This document shows, piece after piece, positions 2,279 through 19,815 of a DNA stretch of 20,000 bases; position 1 is the stretch's first letter; each line of letters starts with the position of its first letter. The notes below the pieces were generated by a model. The model did not search any database. It had not been told where the DNA came from and worked only from the letters and a program-made list of their open reading frames with translations. The position numbers and the translations under genes are program-made. The DNA comes from an uncultured virus (IMG/VR IMGVR_UViG_3300024346_006890) (taxonomy: Duplodnaviria > Heunggongvirae > Uroviricota > Caudoviricetes). The stretch is taken from IMG/VR virus record IMGVR_UViG_3300024346_006890; one strand, 5' to 3'.

Positions 2279-4954
2279 ATGTCAATGATAGACTATGTTA
2301 AAAAGCGAGAATACATTGTAACATTAAAGAACTTCGAAGACTTAGAAGCATTTTACGCTGAGATGCAAGACTTTGGAAAGTTTCCAGGAAGCTGTGCTCC
2401 TGTTCGAGAAGTCGATTGTATCGAGCAACGACCTAGTAGCAGAAGTACACATTATTTGTTAACTGACTGGGAAGCAAGTGAATTAAGAGACGACATTCGA
2501 GTTCAATCAGTTGAGTTACATCCGTCATTAAAAGGTATAACAGCAGGAGAATTTGCAGCTACAAAAACACAAACTTCTAGTAACTGGAATAAATCAACTA
2601 GTACTAGTAGCAATATGTTAAATTTTGCACTGCTTCGTTGTACAGAAGAAGTAAATAGAGCAGGGTGGGGAAGCGACGGAACACCCAATGCTACAGGAAC
2701 TGTAACATTAAGTGCCACTGGTAAAAATGTCGACGTTGTTATAGTTGACGGGGACGGAGTTGCACTAGGACATCCTGAGTATGCAGTAAACGCAGACGGC
2801 ACAGGTGGAACAAGATTTAATGAATATAACTGGTATCAACATAATTTAGCAGTTAAAGGAACAGCTCCCGGAACTTACACATATAGTCCATCAGTATACA
2901 GTAGTCATGCAACGCATACAACAGGAACTACCGCAGGTAATACGCAAGGATGGGCTAGAGATGCTAATCTTTACAATATATATTATCTAGCAGGTGACGG
3001 AGCAGATTACAACTTTCCTTGGGTTATGGACTATGTTAGAGAATTTCATAGAACTAAATCTATTAATCCGGAAACTGGGCGCAAGAATCCTACAATAACA
3101 AACAATAGCTGGGGAATGAGTATATTTCCGGCAGAATGGTCATTTTCCGATATCACAGCAGTAACTTATAGAGGAACTAGGTACACTCCTAGCGCAGGCG
3201 GTGCAACATATACAGGATATAGCGGAGTTTGTACTTCTAATGCTAGATTGGCTACACTTGTTGGTGAAGAAAATATCGGTAACAGAATTTCAACAGACGG
3301 GCCTTACACTCCGCCATCTGGTTCAATTTTATCTAAACCTACTACTTGGATACAAGAGGGACAATCAGCATACCTTGCAGATTTTGCACAACCGGATCCA
3401 AGTTACGAATTAACTATAAGTGGGCCGGCTGATATTAATTTAATTCATAATGTTGCCATGGACGCTGTTAGTGGTGCTATGTCAATCTCCGGACTTATTA
3501 CCGTTAGAGATCAATCATCAAATATTGTTCATACATTCTCCGATGCTGCAAGCAGCACCGATGGCGGAACTATTGAAATAAACGCATCAGCGACTAATAT
3601 TTCTTTACCTAACATTCAAACTTATACTGTAACATTTGATACAACTATAACTTCCGACGGACAAAATATTACCTATGCCACTGGCATGAGCTTAACTGTT
3701 ATAACAGAATCAACACCTGCAACAGCTACGGTAACAGAAATTACAAATTCGCTATTAGGTGCAGCATCATTAACACCGTCTACTACGCCAACTTCAGGAA
3801 ATAATGATGATGGTTTTTGGGAATTAACGCTACCTTTTAATATTTCATATCTCGGAAACAGTTATAATACAATTTATGTTGGTACTAATTCATATCTTAC
3901 ATTTACAGCAGGATCTGTTGCTTACTCAAGCCTCGGAGCAGCGAATCCTAATTTACCAAAAATAATGTGGAGTTCTGCAGATAACAGTGTTCAGCGTATA
4001 TATTATGGGGTAGAAGGTACTGCTCCAAATAGAGTTTACAGAATAAGAGTAGAAGGCAACGGTGGTGTTAGCGGTACATTAGGATCTCCTAATATGGTGT
4101 CTGAGTACGTTTTCTATGAGGATACTCCTAATCAGATAGATTTACAACTAGGTGCAAATAATAGAAAAACAACATCTAGCGGATTTACTTCAGGACAATT
4201 AAATTCCTGGGGATTTATTTCTGGACAACGTATACCTGCCAGAGTCGCTGCACTAGATGCCGATGTCGAAGATGCTATGGCAGAAGGTATTATCTACGTA
4301 GGAGCAGCTGGTAACGGATTATGGAAACACGATGTGCCGGGCGGTCTTGACTGGAATAATACTTTTGAGATGGGTACTAGATACCCAGGGCAAGTTTATT
4401 ATTACATGAGAGGTTCCAGTCCAACTGCAAATGATACAACTAGTCACCCTGACGGCACTTACGAATTACCAAATATTTGTGTAGGTGCAACAGATTTACA
4501 AACAATCGATCAAAAATCTTACTATAGCGATTGTGGCCCAGGTGTTGATATTTGGGCTCCAGGAACTGGTATATTGAGTGCATATAACTCCGGTGTTTCT
4601 GATCCTAGAAGTACTGGGACGACATATTATCTAGGAAAAATAAACGGAACTAGTATGGCTAGTCCTCAAGTCTGCGGAGTTCTTGCGTGTGCATTAGAAT
4701 TAAATCCTCATTGGAATCAGGTGCAGGCAAAAGCATTTATTACGGGTGTTGCTAAATCGAATCAGGTAATATCTACATCTGGCGGGCCGGCTGATATTAG
4801 AGATACTCAAAATGCTGCTGACAAATTCTTGTTTTACAGGAACGATCGTCCTAGTAGCGGTCAAACTTTACCAAAAAACACACAAGGTGTGCGCCCCAAC
4901 AATGGTTTAGCATGGCCGCGTCCTAAAATTTATAGATACGGTAGTTCATACTAA
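2279..4954 (+). CDS. Subtilisin-like serine protease (peptidase S8), paralog of the upstream gene, with an N-terminal propeptide-like region
   Basis: NVDVVIVDGDG, SHATHTTGT, AAGNG and NGTSMASPQV motifs. The N-terminus EYIVTLK resembles I9-type propeptides. AAGGA RBS just upstream of the ATG. Confidence 0.92.
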   Translation: MSMIDYVKKREYIVTLKNFEDLEAFYAEMQDFGKFPGSCAPVREVDCIEQRPSSRSTHYLLTDWEASELRDDIRVQSVELHPSLKGITAGEFAATKTQTSSNWNKSTSTSSNMLNFALLRCTEEVNRAGWGSDGTPNATGTVTLSATGKNVDVVIVDGDGVALGHPEYAVNADGTGGTRFNEYNWYQHNLAVKGTAPGTYTYSPSVYSSHATHTTGTTAGNTQGWARDANLYNIYYLAGDGADYNFPWVMDYVREFHRTKSINPETGRKNPTITNNSWGMSIFPAEWSFSDITAVTYRGTRYTPSAGGATYTGYSGVCTSNARLATLVGEENIGNRISTDGPYTPPSGSILSKPTTWIQEGQSAYLADFAQPDPSYELTISGPADINLIHNVAMDAVSGAMSISGLITVRDQSSNIVHTFSDAASSTDGGTIEINASATNISLPNIQTYTVTFDTTITSDGQNITYATGMSLTVITESTPATATVTEITNSLLGAASLTPSTTPTSGNNDDGFWELTLPFNISYLGNSYNTIYVGTNSYLTFTAGSVAYSSLGAANPNLPKIMWSSADNSVQRIYYGVEGTAPNRVYRIRVEGNGGVSGTLGSPNMVSEYVFYEDTPNQIDLQLGANNRKTTSSGFTSGQLNSWGFISGQRIPARVAALDADVEDAMAEGIIYVGAAGNGLWKHDVPGGLDWNNTFEMGTRYPGQVYYYMRGSSPTANDTTSHPDGTYELPNICVGATDLQTIDQKSYYSDCGPGVDIWAPGTGILSAYNSGVSDPRSTGTTYYLGKINGTSMASPQVCGVLACALELNPHWNQVQAKAFITGVAKSNQVISTSGGPADIRDTQNAADKFLFYRNDRPSSGQTLPKNTQGVRPNNGLAWPRPKIYRYGSSY

Positions 4955-9856: not shown

Positions 9857-10086
9857 TACATCCGTTAGCTGAAGATTTTACTAGTCTTAAAGATTCCGAA
9901 ATTGAAGGGAAGTTGCAAGACTTAACTAAAAAATATTGGCAAGCTAGTAACCCATTGGTTAAACAACAAATAGCAGTTTTCATCGATATCTACAAAACAG
10001 AAATGAATACTAGAAGATCGAAACAAATAGATCAACTATACCAAAAACGTGACAAAGGACTTGACAATTTAATTAAAGTTAATTAA
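9853..10086 (+). CDS. Hypothetical protein (77 aa, helical, charged)
   Basis: ATGA overlap with the previous gene, AGGTG RBS, and it fills the gap before the next gene. Confidence 0.75.
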   Translation: MIHPLAEDFTSLKDSEIEGKLQDLTKKYWQASNPLVKQQIAVFIDIYKTEMNTRRSKQIDQLYQKRDKGLDNLIKVN

Positions 10087-10089
10087 AAT
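10061..10089 (+). promoter_or_regulatory. Sigma70-type promoter upstream of the DnaE fragment
   Basis: TTGACA (10061-10066), 17-nt spacer, TAAAAT (10084-10089). The ATG follows 7 nt later. Confidence 0.8.
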
Positions 10090-10096
10090 ATGTCAT

Positions 10097-10597
10097 ATGA
10101 GAATTGACAAATTTGGTAATCCTATACATCAAGAGCAAGATCTTATCGATTTAATTTATAATAATAAAATCGATTACATTGATAAGATCGCTATCGACGA
10201 TACTGACTCAATTAAAGAATTTGCAAAAAACTGCGAATTAAATCTTAAAGTTTATCAAGATATTGATATAAGCGTATCAGAGTTTGACAAAATTTGTCAA
10301 TCTGAATGGTTTATTCCCAACGAATATAAAACTATGGATATCGAAGGTTTTTTAGTTGATCGATGCCCTAAGCAAAACTACCAACGCCTAATCGAAGAAC
10401 TACAAGAATATAAATCTAGAAATATGCTTGATTTATTAAAATGGTTGAAATATATCGTCGATACCTGTAAAGCAAACAATATTATCTGGGGAGTAGGACG
10501 TGGAAGTAGTGTTGCTAGTTACGTCTTATATCTTATCGGAGTACACAAAATTGACAGTTTAAAGTATAATTTAGACTGGCACGAATTCTTGAGATAA
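10097..10597 (+). CDS. Stand-alone fragment of DNA polymerase III alpha subunit (DnaE-like, GRGS region)
   Basis: The C-terminal half, RLIEELQEY...YIVDTCKANNIIWGVGRGSSVASYVLYLIGVHKIDSLKYNLDWHEFLR, matches the DnaE pattern GxGRGSxxGSLVAYxLGITxxDPLxxxLxFERFL. The protein is only 166 aa. Confidence 0.85.
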   Translation: MRIDKFGNPIHQEQDLIDLIYNNKIDYIDKIAIDDTDSIKEFAKNCELNLKVYQDIDISVSEFDKICQSEWFIPNEYKTMDIEGFLVDRCPKQNYQRLIEELQEYKSRNMLDLLKWLKYIVDTCKANNIIWGVGRGSSVASYVLYLIGVHKIDSLKYNLDWHEFLR

Positions 10598-12376: not shown

Positions 12377-12404
12377 ATAGGGTCTTGACAGACCCTATTT
12401 TTTT
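12377..12404 (+). terminator. Intrinsic terminator overlapping the next promoter
   Basis: ATAGGGTCT-TGAC-AGACCCTAT 9-bp stem followed by a T-run, starting 10 nt after the stop at 12367. Confidence 0.8.
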
Positions 12405-12413
12405 CTATATAAT
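12385..12413 (+). promoter_or_regulatory. Consensus sigma70 promoter
   Basis: TTGACA (12385-12390), 17-nt spacer, TATAAT (12408-12413). ATG at 12420. Confidence 0.88.
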
Positions 12414-14817: not shown

Positions 14818-15368
14818 AAGAAAAATTTATCGATTTGTATATGGATTGGGCAACTAGGCTTGCACAATTAAGTCATGCCAAGCGCCTACAAGTAGGTGCG
14901 GTTATCGTTAAAGACGATACAGTTATCAGTTATGGTTATAACGGTATGCCTGCAGGATGGGATAACGATTGCGAAGACAAAAAGTATGATCCCGGAGCAG
15001 GTGGATGGCTTAGTCCCGAAGAGTTTAATGAACAATACCCATACGAGGAACTACACGGAGAGTTCCAAGACCATAAAGTGCGGTACGGTTTAAAAACTAA
15101 ACCAGAAGTTCTACATGCTGAAAGTAATGCTATTGCAAAACTAGCAAAGTCTAGCAACAGTGGTCTCGAAGCCGACATCTTTATTACTCATGCTCCGTGT
15201 ATGGAATGTGCTAAACTCATTTATCAGTCAGGTATTAAACGTGTGTTTTACAATAAACACTATCGCGACGATGCAGGGGTGGCATTTTTACAAAAATCAG
15301 GTGTGTTTGTATCCACACCTGAAATGCGAGAGTTTGCAAAAAAGACTAGGGGATCTAAGATCCCCTAA
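14814..15368 (+). CDS. dCMP deaminase
   Basis: VGAVIV, GYNGMP, and zinc motifs LHAESNAI and PCMECAK. Confidence 0.93.
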
Positions 15369-15373
15369 CTTTT
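15338..15373. terminator. Bidirectional intrinsic terminator between the convergent dCMP deaminase and phoH genes
   Basis: TAGGGGATC-TAA-GATCCCCTA (15347-15367), with an A-run upstream and CTTTT downstream. Confidence 0.8.
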
Positions 15374-16088
15374 AATCTCCGTAGACTTCAAGCACCTCCT
15401 TTACTGCTTGATGTCTTTCAATATCTCGACTATCAAAATGTACAACATCGATATGAGATAGTTTACGACCTTTTAACTTATCTGCAAAATCGATAAGACC
15501 ATTATCTTTTAATCTGTCTGCTTGTGCTAAATCCCCAGTTACTACCATTTTACTATTTTCTCCCAGTCGTGTTAGTAACATTTTCATTTGATTCTGCGTG
15601 GCATTTTGCATTTCATCCGCAATGACATACGAATTTTTAAATGTCCTACCTCGCATATAAGCAAGTGGGCTAATTTCTATAACTCCTTCATAGAGCATAC
15701 TTTCAATATCTTTTTGTTGATAATATTCTCCTAAAACGTCGAAAATTGGTCTAGTCCAGGGTGCCATTTTTTCATTTAGCGTACCTGGTAAAAACCCTAA
15801 ATCTTCATCTACACTAACGGCGGGTCTTGTAACGATGAGTTTGTCTACAATGCCCTCTTGTAAAAGCCTAATACCATTTTGTACCGCTAGCAGAGTCTTA
15901 CCCGTACCGGCAGGACCGATAGCAAAAACTATGTTTTTAGTATCGTCTTGTAGCTTTTGTAGGTAAGTTTCTTGGTGCTTATTGCGAGGCAAAAGTGTTA
16001 CTTTATGCTTCTTTTGAGGTGCATATGTTTGAAAATCAATAACGTTAACATTGGAGGTAAAACGTTTCTTCACTCGGTTTTTACTCAT
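15372..16088 (-). CDS. phoH: PhoH-like ATPase
   Basis: GPAGTGKT, TRPAV, LGFLPGTLNEKMAPW, PLAYMRGRTF, DEMQN, KMLLTRLG and GDLAQAD motifs. GGGAGA RBS. Confidence 0.96.
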   Translation of the reverse strand: MSKNRVKKRFTSNVNVIDFQTYAPQKKHKVTLLPRNKHQETYLQKLQDDTKNIVFAIGPAGTGKTLLAVQNGIRLLQEGIVDKLIVTRPAVSVDEDLGFLPGTLNEKMAPWTRPIFDVLGEYYQQKDIESMLYEGVIEISPLAYMRGRTFKNSYVIADEMQNATQNQMKMLLTRLGENSKMVVTGDLAQADRLKDNGLIDFADKLKGRKLSHIDVVHFDSRDIERHQAVKEVLEVYGD

Positions 16089-16103
16089 TAAGTTCTCCCA
16101 CTT

Positions 16104-16151
16104 AAAAAGTAGGACTTGTAGCGACCGCCTCGATAACTACAGAGGTCCTAC
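16104..16151 (-). promoter_or_regulatory. Structured 5' leader of phoH (long bulged hairpin followed by U5)
   Basis: Minus-strand RNA GUAGGAC-CUC-UGUAG-UUAU-CGA-GGCGG-UCG-CUACA-A-GUCCUAC-UUUUU, with 7+5+3 bp stems. Confidence 0.65.
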
Positions 16152-16156
16152 AGTAT

Positions 16157-16215
16157 TATTTAAGAGATTTTGTTAAAAATAATAAGATAAGATATGATTT
16201 AAAGCCAGCTAAATA
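16157..16215. promoter_or_regulatory. Back-to-back TAAATA motifs (divergent candidate late promoters)
   Basis: TATTTA at 16157-16162 (TAAATA on the - strand, facing phoH) and TAAATA at 16210-16215 (facing the 16242 gene), in an AT-rich intergenic region. Confidence 0.5.
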
Positions 16216-16241
16216 AGTGTAGAACCTTCTAGGGATGAAAA

Positions 16242-16802
16242 ATGCTTGATATTTTAGAAGTAATTAAAAACATTGATACAATCTATAGTACTAACAGTAG
16301 CCTAAGCACGTTAAAAGATTTTGAGCGTGTGTTAGACGAGATGGATATGTACGTATATAAAAATTGGCAGGATGGTGAGCTTGCCGAAGGACCTATTGTT
16401 GATCGACATTGGGTTACTGCTAGCTTCATGTGGCCTGAAGATAAAATGCCAGACCCCATGGCTGGTAAAAGGCTACTAGATTACGGATGTAAGGTAAAAT
16501 ATCGCCGTAGTCATCTTATAGAGCCAAGAAAAGTTAAAACACCAGACGACCTTCGACCCGGAACAAAGAAGGGAAAGATTGATCGTAATCCTATATGGAT
16601 AGTAGAAATTTCAATGCCTAAGAAATTAGTCAGTGATATATTCGACGGCTACATGACGAAAATGCGAGAGAGTATGAATATCGGTAGGACTGAGGGGGCT
16701 GTGCCTGCGGCAGCTGAGCCGGCCGATAACGCACAAGCAGCAGCACCTGCACCGTCAGCAGCACCAGCAGAAGGAGCACCAAGTGTACCGCCAGCAGCTT
16801 AA
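16242..16802 (+). CDS. Hypothetical phage protein with Ala/Pro-rich C-terminal tail
   Basis: 186-aa ORF with a globular-looking N-terminal part and a low-complexity tail. Confidence 0.8.
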   Translation: MLDILEVIKNIDTIYSTNSSLSTLKDFERVLDEMDMYVYKNWQDGELAEGPIVDRHWVTASFMWPEDKMPDPMAGKRLLDYGCKVKYRRSHLIEPRKVKTPDDLRPGTKKGKIDRNPIWIVEISMPKKLVSDIFDGYMTKMRESMNIGRTEGAVPAAAEPADNAQAAAPAPSAAPAEGAPSVPPAA

Positions 16803-17523
16803 TGAAGAATTAAAAGAACGAGATTTACATAATCTTGTCGATAACGTATTCGAGATAGACGGATACGCTAGTAAAATGGGTAGCGACAAAGATATTGTTG
16901 TCTTAAGTTTTACTGTTGAATATCACGATCCTGCAAAAGACCTAGTTAATTTTATCGAAAGAGGATATGACTTCGTACTCGATGCAGATGCAACACCTGG
17001 CGAACTTTCTGACGGTCGGTATAAAGTGTTTGTTGAAATTGAGAGAAACAGACGAATTAGCGACCAAATTTTAGAAGTATTAGACGGCGTAGGAAAACTT
17101 ACAGGCATAGATAAATTTAAATTTAGATATCATAAAAGTTTTCATTCAGTACCAGCAAGCGACCAAACTCTTACAGAGCTAGTTCCTAGAACTAGCAATG
17201 AATATGATATAAAGATTAAAGAAAATCATATGAATAATTTTAGTAACTTTTTTAATAAAAGTTATTTAGAAGGTATTAGTATAGACAACGATGATTTAAA
17301 TTTTCAGAAAAAGTACAGTGAGCCGTTGCGTATGAGAATTACAGACTTTGGCTCTACAAAAAGTGTTTATGAAAATATTAAAGGTCCTATAATGATTGAA
17401 GGCAAAGACATAGCCGAGACATTGTATCTTACAAAATACTTAGGAAACTACAACATTACTAAAATAGGATCTACTTTTATATTTGAAAACGAAGGTTATG
17501 CTGTAGCATTGGAGAAACTATAA
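16783..17523 (+). CDS. Hypothetical phage protein (246 aa)
   Basis: GTG start with AAGGAG RBS (16771-16776). TAATG coupling to the next gene. Confidence 0.8.
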   Translation: MYRQQLNEELKERDLHNLVDNVFEIDGYASKMGSDKDIVVLSFTVEYHDPAKDLVNFIERGYDFVLDADATPGELSDGRYKVFVEIERNRRISDQILEVLDGVGKLTGIDKFKFRYHKSFHSVPASDQTLTELVPRTSNEYDIKIKENHMNNFSNFFNKSYLEGISIDNDDLNFQKKYSEPLRMRITDFGSTKSVYENIKGPIMIEGKDIAETLYLTKYLGNYNITKIGSTFIFENEGYAVALEKL

Positions 17524-19786: not shown

Positions 19787-19815
19787 TTGACAATTATGTC
19801 TAAATGCTATATAAT
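19787..19815 (+). promoter_or_regulatory. Consensus sigma70 promoter upstream of dnaJ
   Basis: TTGACA (19787-19792), 17-nt spacer, TATAAT (19810-19815). ATG at 19821. Confidence 0.88.

Follow-up and report, generated by a model that had tools for sequence, protein, structure and literature searches.

What a hairpin followed by a run of U residues does directly in front of the ribosome-binding site of phoH is the question raised by the window analysed here, a 20,000-nucleotide (nt) stretch of DNA from an uncultured virus of the Caudoviricetes (IMG/VR record IMGVR_UViG_3300024346_006890). An earlier note on this DNA had described the 66-nt phoH leader as terminator-like, a candidate attenuator or small RNA. 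Comparison with relatives demonstrates that the leader is a real, conserved and uncatalogued RNA, specific to phoH in this clade of phages. On balance, we favour the reading that it is a two-state translational gate in the 5' untranslated region (UTR) of an mRNA that carries phoH alone and is made from a late-type promoter. An anti-Shine-Dalgarno (anti-SD) strand shared between two helices is a well-known type of mechanism; the RNA family itself is new.

The order of elements that the earlier note had read from the phoH strand (TAAATA, 5 nt, 43-nt hairpin, U5, GGGAGA and AUG) was recovered at every position (Table 1), and the neighbouring gene 16242-16802 is indeed on the plus strand, divergent from phoH, leaving no upstream gene for the hairpin to terminate. 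The proposed structured, cis-acting leader was likewise borne out, and it is conserved. Retrieval from IMG/VR by PhoH similarity yielded 478 related stretches, and the best 80 of them (77-88% identity, 489,778 bases in total) were fetched. A covariance model identified exactly one leader, ending at the phoH ATG, in each of these 80 loci, and none elsewhere in the fetched bases. Most of the 80 loci belong to the training alignment of the model; L004 and L028, which lie outside it, still reach 81 and 54 bits. In the window the model has one hit (99.8 bits), and each of five large phage records (199-383 kb) has one strong copy (E from 1e-12 to 1e-23), all other hits having E of at least 0.02. Weak second hits in L208 and L209 were rejected, being other TAAATA-led leaders and not copies of the phoH element.

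A scan of all viral contigs for the hairpin pattern gave at least 120 matches. Downstream of the hairpin, 179 of the 200 loci gathered carry the coding motif of the PhoH N-terminus; the remaining 21 include at least nine G+C-rich chance matches, truncated loci and two with variant N-termini. The 179 loci represent 110 distinct leaders, of which 108 were aligned and two dropped because a contig end cut their 5' context. Within the window, the 43-nt hairpin is matched exactly at a single place, and it is matched in none of 200 shuffles. Rfam at gathering thresholds produced no hits in the window, and at E <= 10 over 15950-16300 its three hits were weak (9-16 bits, where the thresholds are 42-100) and did not lie sense on the leader, so a match to known families, a point left for checking by the earlier note, was not found. 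No leader or RNA motif of phage phoH is described in the limited collection of literature that was searched. A search seeded with the most divergent PhoH (that of L028) returned the same clade again, at 75-86% identity, and no more distant relatives.

The conserved parts of the leader, S1 to S5, can be arranged in two ways. In the open fold, GUAGGAC of S1 pairs with GUCCUAC of S4, and UGUAGU of S2 with CUACA of S3, so that the Shine-Dalgarno sequence (SD) is free. In the closed fold, S1 pairs with GGUC-R-CUACA of S3, and S4 with S5, so that the SD is hidden.

Table 1. Positions of the phoH leader, its strands and the neighbouring elements in the window
Feature	Position	Strand	Basis or role
TAAATA box, putative late-type promoter element of phoH	16162-16157	-	kept spacing to the hairpin; promoter role predicted
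ATACT spacer	16156-16152	-	sequence
43-nt hairpin	16151-16109	-	sequence
S1, 5' arm GUAGGACC	16144-16151	-	pairs with S4 (open fold) or S3 (closed fold)
S2, inner 5' strand UGUAGU	16136-16141	-	pairs with CUACA of S3 in the open fold
S3, AGG-C-GGUC-G-CUACA, conserved 'loop' and inner 3' strand	16117-16130	-	pairs with S1 in the closed fold (Alt-1)
S4, 3' arm GUCCUAC + UU, anti-SD strand	16107-16115	-	pairs with S1 (open) or S5 (closed, Alt-2)
UUUUU	16108-16104	-	sequence
AAGU	16103-16100	-	sequence
S5 AAGUGGGAGA, A-run and SD	16094-16103	-	free in the open fold, paired to S4 in the closed fold
GGGAGA (SD)	16099-16094	-	sequence
phoH AUG	16088-16086	-	sequence
phoH gene	15372-16088	-	PF02562, E 9.8e-74; phrog_170; PhoH-only ATPase, 238 aa
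Two-way terminator-like hairpin	15345-15369	both	terminator scan; directly past the phoH stop codon
Second terminator-like site past phoH	15322-15297	-	terminator scan
TAAATA box of the divergent virion-protein gene 16242-16802	16210-16215	+	box conservation

Part of the evidence for the translational gate comes from the helix that hides the SD. An anchored scan showed that the 3' arm, together with what follows it (UCCUAC+UU...), is complementary to the bases before and within the SD (...AAGUrGGA), and an SD-hiding helix of 6-11 contiguous base pairs (bp) can be formed in all 110 distinct leaders. Its best partner is S4 in 103 of them; another site was picked in seven, ties included. This Alt-2 helix is 93% paired, with changes on both sides in four of its ten pairs. 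In particular, the tail of the hairpin and the A-run change together, as in CUACAU/AUGUAG, CUACUA/UAGUAG and CUACUUUA/UAAAGUAG. Over the 108 aligned leaders the whole closed fold (19 pairs) is paired in 95.7% of cells, and four of its pairs (26 cells) are changed on both sides; the cells paired, the double-sided cells and the covariation score were reached by none of 500 shuffles, and slid controls were 37-55% paired. When the extension of S1:S3 is included (22 pairs), 94.9% of cells are paired and five pairs (28 cells) are double-sided, again reached by none of 500 shuffles.

The other helix of the closed fold, S1:S3 (Alt-1, 12 pairs with the extension), is 96.5% paired. Free folding of the 108 leaders placed the SD in a pair in 95 of them, and there the 5' arm UGUAGGACC pairs with GGUC-R-CUACA instead of with the 3' arm; when the SD helix was enforced, all 108 leaders paired S1 into GGUCnCUAC. 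The GGUC of the 'loop' is invariant in 108/108 leaders, which we explain by this S1:S3 pairing in the alternative fold, whereas the 5' half of the loop, like the bulges, differs among leaders in both sequence and length. A conserved unpaired core beyond the helices, as in riboswitches, was not observed in the aligned leaders; the invariant bases lie in S1, S3, S4 or S5.

Folded alone, the 66-nt leader reaches its energy minimum (-23.7 kcal/mol) in the hairpin that the earlier note describes, the open fold; the complete intergenic stretch of 166 nt is of ordinary stability (z = -1.68). The outer stem (7 bp) and the middle stem (6 bp), 13 pairs together, are paired in 98.3% of cells, and helix 2 (S2:S3) in 97.5%, three of its six pairs being invariant. 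These two stems of the hairpin drawn in the earlier note are thus retained, and its innermost CGA/UCG stem is not: 71% of cells are paired there, under the shuffle mean of 73.2%. Of the conservation and covariation on which that note would have the element judged, conservation is clear, and covariation is present in the SD-hiding helix and almost absent from the hairpin that had been noted. A pairing of S1 with the leader of the divergent gene, seen in the fold of the 166-nt stretch, was dropped, its partner sequence not being conserved in relatives.

Both folds point to the same strand. On the phoH strand the open fold has 115 G·U cells against 3 A·C among the 108 leaders, and the closed fold has 125 against 9. 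The object under selection is therefore the RNA read in the phoH direction, not the DNA or the opposite transcript. The open reading frame (ORF) 16051-16176 on the plus strand overlaps the leader, and a coding explanation was rejected on account of 1- and 2-nt insertions and deletions in the loops of relatives.

All energies, folding orders and barriers given here are calculated. The energy of the closed fold minus that of the open fold averages -1.14 kcal/mol (standard deviation 2.35) over the 108 leaders; the closed fold is lower in 80 of them and the open fold in 27, and the two lie within 2 kcal/mol of each other in 64. In the window the open fold is favoured (-23.7 versus -20.1 kcal/mol). 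In a growing chain, S1:S3 is the minimum-energy fold at 30-38 nt; the hairpin takes its place at 40-54 nt, and at 58 nt, with the SD made, the closed fold can compete. A heuristic findpath estimate puts the barrier between the finished folds at ~15-16 kcal/mol and that for turning S1:S3 into the hairpin, in a chain of 46 nt, at ~10 kcal/mol. Since S1:S3 is predicted to come first in the nascent chain and the later barrier is high, the shares of open and closed mRNA would be set while the RNA is being made.

We propose the following scheme for the gate. The late-type TAAATA box 5 nt upstream would drive transcription from a start at or beside the first G of the hairpin. In molecules that take the open fold, the anti-SD strand S4 would be locked away and the ribosome-binding site left free; in those that take the closed fold, S1 would be parked on the invariant 'loop' S3, and S4 with the U's after it would hide the SD by pairing with the A-run and with GUrGGA in the SD region. 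The leader would in this way gate the translation of phoH, not its transcription. The share may afterwards be shifted by temperature, by a helicase or chaperone, by the 30S subunit or by some other such input.

Several observations weigh against this scheme. The family is shallow, with PhoH identities of 75-88% and an effective sequence number of 2.05 in the model, and related sequences can beat all shuffles even without structure, a caveat on the shuffle test used above. The open fold is nearly devoid of covariation: double-sided changes are confined to one pair (two cells), and the observed values do not exceed those of shuffles. Five S1:S3 pairs are invariant and so uninformative either way; the helices of the open fold and S1:S3 are supported by conservation and complementarity, not by covariation. 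Many changes in S4 (C to U, A to G) suit both of its partners and so do not distinguish the folds. In the window, a 14-mer of S4 can pair over 3-9 contiguous bases with the ribosome-site regions of 20 other genes, at least 8 being reached in 3 of the 20, and taken by itself the window's 8-bp SD helix is no more than chance would give. The predicted accessibility of the SD does not set phoH apart (family median 0.29, against 0.34 for other genes), and in the window itself the open fold dominates, with a predicted SD-unpaired value of 0.99. In the calculations that bear on an RNA thermometer, the order of the folds is kept from 5 to 45 °C in three of the four leaders tested; in L029, whose folds lie within 1.4 kcal/mol, they cross by 0.1 at 45 °C. 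Finally, the transcription start is placed by the spacing of the box, and the assembled RNA contigs of relatives show no molecule ends.

Some of these observations agree with a simpler function, a plain 5'-terminal stabiliser that protects phoH mRNA from 5'-end-dependent decay, with the alternative pairings being incidental products of an anti-SD-like 3' arm and A/U-rich flanks. Such a role would fit the open fold, with its nearly complete pairing, the window SD helix that by itself stays within chance, and the position of the promoter box, 4-5 nt before the hairpin in 108/108 leaders. In addition, other TAAATA-led leaders begin with a hairpin of the UGUAG...CUACA type: in L208 of a relative (G005:260763-260831, minus strand) and in L202, the phoH locus of PA5oct, a jumbo phage of Pseudomonas, the box is followed after 4 nt by a UGUA(G)...(C)UACA hairpin. 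A 5'-terminal hairpin may therefore be common to the late-type mRNAs of this phage group. However, a stabiliser needs no invariant loop segment, and GGUC is kept throughout the leaders while the other half of the loop drifts; it also leaves the compensatory changes between the tail and the A-run before the SD unexplained. We regard the stabiliser as a possible but rather doubtful account; together with attenuation it is the chief competitor of the translational gate.

The terminator-like appearance that the earlier note stressed would make the leader a transcription attenuator, in which the hairpin and U-run terminate before phoH and S1:S3 is the antiterminator. In the window a strong stem is followed by U5, RNAs of 43-46 nt have the hairpin as their minimum-energy fold (-18.7 to -19.9 kcal/mol), the stable G+C-rich hairpin expected of terminators, and the early formation of S1:S3 in competition with the hairpin is an attenuator layout. 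A terminator-grade U-run (at least five U in the eight bases after the stem) is present in 42 of the 108 distinct leaders. In the other 66 it is absent, so the attenuator in the form given by the note is not supported, though the window itself has U5. In 23 leaders the leading U-run is two or shorter, with tails such as AUUCCCCA, UUCCCCAA and UAUCAUUU, and those U's that are kept after the stem pair with the A-run before the SD, with compensatory changes. A terminator scan of the window listed 18 terminator-like sites, and the phoH leader hairpin is not among them. Moreover, read-through RNA would free S4 to hide the SD, odd for an antiterminated state, and the leader is without a leader peptide or known sensor. 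Because the U-run is unconserved, the scan omits the hairpin, the innermost stem is not conserved and half of the loop is invariant, the leader is, as judged from the aligned sequences, not a conserved terminator, and we consider attenuation of phoH unlikely; given its U5, some termination may take place in the window's own phage.

PhoH is an ATPase, and some members of its family are reported RNA helicases. It is conceivable, and in our opinion no likelier than attenuation, that the leader is the cognate RNA of phage PhoH, which would recognise or remodel it (unwinding it from the paired 5' end, for instance), flip it between the SD-open and SD-closed folds and autoregulate phoH. A related alternative is a protein operator, in which PhoH or another RNA-binding protein of the phage binds the hairpin and sets the fold as autoregulation; it overlaps with the translational gate, for which it would be the trigger. 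The element is specific to phoH, single-copy per genome and strongly conserved in sequence, as an operator might be, and an excerpt of a preprint (10.64898/2026.10.21.760802) places structured RNAs beside bacterial PhoH2 genes. All conserved bases are nevertheless explained already by RNA-RNA pairings, and that preprint, as excerpted, concerns PIN-PhoH proteins and far longer RNAs, whereas the phage protein is PhoH-only; we view an operator as improbable. Finally, the small RNA of ~50 nt that the earlier note suggested would be free, run from the TAAATA promoter to the U-run and act in trans through its anti-SD-like 3' arm. The box, hairpin and U5 of the window speak for it, as does the ability of the arm to pair with several ribosome-site regions there. 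We consider it very improbable, since the U-run is not conserved and the element never occurs apart from the phoH ribosome site, with which its spacing covaries.

The translational gate presupposes an mRNA that includes S1. Among the 108 distinct leaders the promoter box is TAAATA in 90 and TAAGTA in 18, and the gap before the first G of S1 is 5 nt in 97 leaders and 4 nt in 11. The geometry of T4 late promoters would place the start on or beside that G. From the spacing of the box, its sole basis, the 5' end of phoH mRNA is probably at ~16151, at or beside the first G of the hairpin. In four freshwater RNA runs (0.04 of the sampled words in each), Logan contigs cover the conserved parts through relatives, a kind of evidence that cannot show the start, the end or expression. 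Similar boxes precede other genes: the one in front of the divergent virion-protein gene is invariant, 26-30 nt upstream of it, in 21/21 relatives inspected, and gene 4998 has a TAAATA box 23 nt upstream. For the related jumbo phages CBB and GAP32, an excerpt of the published description (PMC5259590) reports an ATAAATA motif before structural genes together with a gp55-like sigma factor.

Other promoter-like sequences were seen in the window. Near-perfect sigma-70 consensus promoters lie at gene boundaries at 19787-19815 (+, 12/12) and 10061-10089 (+, 11/12). At 12377-12413 (+), the gap that separates the MazG-like gene from gene 12420 contains a terminator-like hairpin (ATAGGGTC..GACCCTAT, then a T-run), which holds in its loop and 3' half the -35 element of a perfect sigma-70 consensus promoter (TTGACA-17-TATAAT, 12/12). 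This arrangement looks like a terminator/promoter cassette and resembles the promoter-early stem-loops of T4-type phages. The phage seems to use host-type promoters beside its TAAATA boxes. Between the phoH box and the divergent gene, 16163-16241 forms a second conserved intergenic block (AAATCATAAC.TA.CAGTTTATTATT on the phoH strand), kept in many relatives (L002-L081), inside which a promoter-like TATGAT / TTGTTA pair occurs at 16170-16198 (+). The block could be a second promoter or a regulator site.

The phoH gene is the only minus-strand gene among the 24 annotated ORFs of the window, flanked on one side by a dCMP deaminase gene and on the other by the divergent virion-protein gene; the upstream neighbour is divergent also in 21/21 relatives inspected. 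It is an inverted one-gene cassette, closed by its downstream two-way hairpin. At 15297-15369 two minus-strand terminator-like hairpins stand in succession, the first of which also reads as a plus-strand terminator and overlaps the end of the dCMP deaminase gene. The phoH product matches PF02562 and generic AAA families only, and a PIN domain is not among the matches.

The phages concerned are a clade of uncultured freshwater jumbo phages, and some of the stretches retrieved by PhoH come from contigs 300-383 kb long. Among cultured phages PA5oct is the nearest relative, with proteins 52-55% identical. The closest protein matches are in the PA5oct group (PhoH 55%, clamp loader 52% identity), and in PA5oct phoH is likewise inverted between the same neighbour genes. 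A near-identity nucleotide search of 15300-16900 against cultured phages gave no match. The nearest record, G001, does not cover the region and shares with the window a single 41-nt match of 80% identity. The phoH leader of PA5oct (L202 1020-1100) also consists of a TAAATA box and a hairpin; its sequence is unrelated to the leader of the window, and inspection for an SD-hiding helix revealed none that was convincing. The PA5oct paper, in the part available, mentions sigma-70-like promoters only.

Two further observations concern distant parts of the window. The adjacent genes 3-2267 and 2279-4954 (both +) encode large proteins of 754 aa (incomplete at the edge of the window) and of 891 aa; each is assigned to phrog_9158, which makes them tandem paralogues, and the product of 3-2267 has an additional match to a protease family. 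The 166-aa ORF 10097-10597 (+) matches just a piece of the DNA polymerase families phrog_11127 and phrog_405 (positions 362-429 of 1190), which suggests a split or fragmentary polymerase gene.

Few "auxiliary" phage genes are as widespread as phoH, which also serves as a marker gene; to our knowledge, the role of PhoH in phage infection has been an open question for decades. A cassette with its own late-type box, terminator and tight leader would indicate that selection in these phages acts on how much PhoH is made or on when. The leader offers a small RNA, of 66 nt, for studying the control of phoH and the action of PhoH on RNA, and, were PhoH to remodel its own leader, it would be a defined natural RNA substrate for a phage PhoH.

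Comparison with known systems places the leader between several of them. In the expression platforms of translational riboswitches and in the kinetically controlled leader of the MS2 maturation gene, the helix that sequesters the SD and a second helix upstream of it compete for one anti-SD strand. The phoH leader shares this arrangement, the outcome probably being set by the order of folding; unlike riboswitches, it has no evident ligand-binding core and no Rfam match. Altuvia and co-workers reportedly described two alternative conformations of the lambda cIII mRNA, with the ribosome site exposed or occluded; the switch region is said to extend across the beginning of the coding sequence, with the balance shifted by RNase III and by temperature. 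Here, too, one phage leader has two exclusive folds of similar (in our case predicted) energy, one of them occluding the SD, but the sequences are unrelated and the phoH strands lie entirely in the 5' UTR. With intrinsic terminators the window leader shares a G+C-rich stem directly before U5; it differs from them in not standing at the end of a transcription unit and in its U-run, which is kept in 42/108 leaders and pairs with the A-run.

A partial parallel exists in T4, where, according to the excerpted source, inhibitory hairpins of genes e, soc, 49 and I-TevI sequester the SD, and TATAAATA-like late promoters are located within the region of the 5' strand, so that late transcripts lack this strand and are translated whereas the long early ones are silent (PMC3014915). 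The SD of phoH would similarly be held in a helix (Alt-2). In contrast to that scheme as excerpted, the TAAATA box of phoH is upstream of every strand (4-5 nt before S1), and no gene lies upstream to supply read-through RNA, so that one transcript carries both the inhibitory helix and its competitor. Finally, the excerpted preprint (10.64898/2026.10.21.760802) describes long multi-stem structured RNAs, including a 357-nt motif, adjacent to bacterial PIN-PhoH (PhoH2) genes. Common to both cases is a conserved structured RNA adjoining a gene of the PhoH ATPase/helicase family; the phage element is a 66-nt leader of a PhoH-only gene, and the two are set apart by the excerpted description, not by sequence comparison. 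We treat this link as a lead only. If phage PhoH does remodel its own leader, the bacterial PhoH2 RNAs, as far as the excerpt describes them, would fit the same rule, by which PhoH-family enzymes travel with their RNA.

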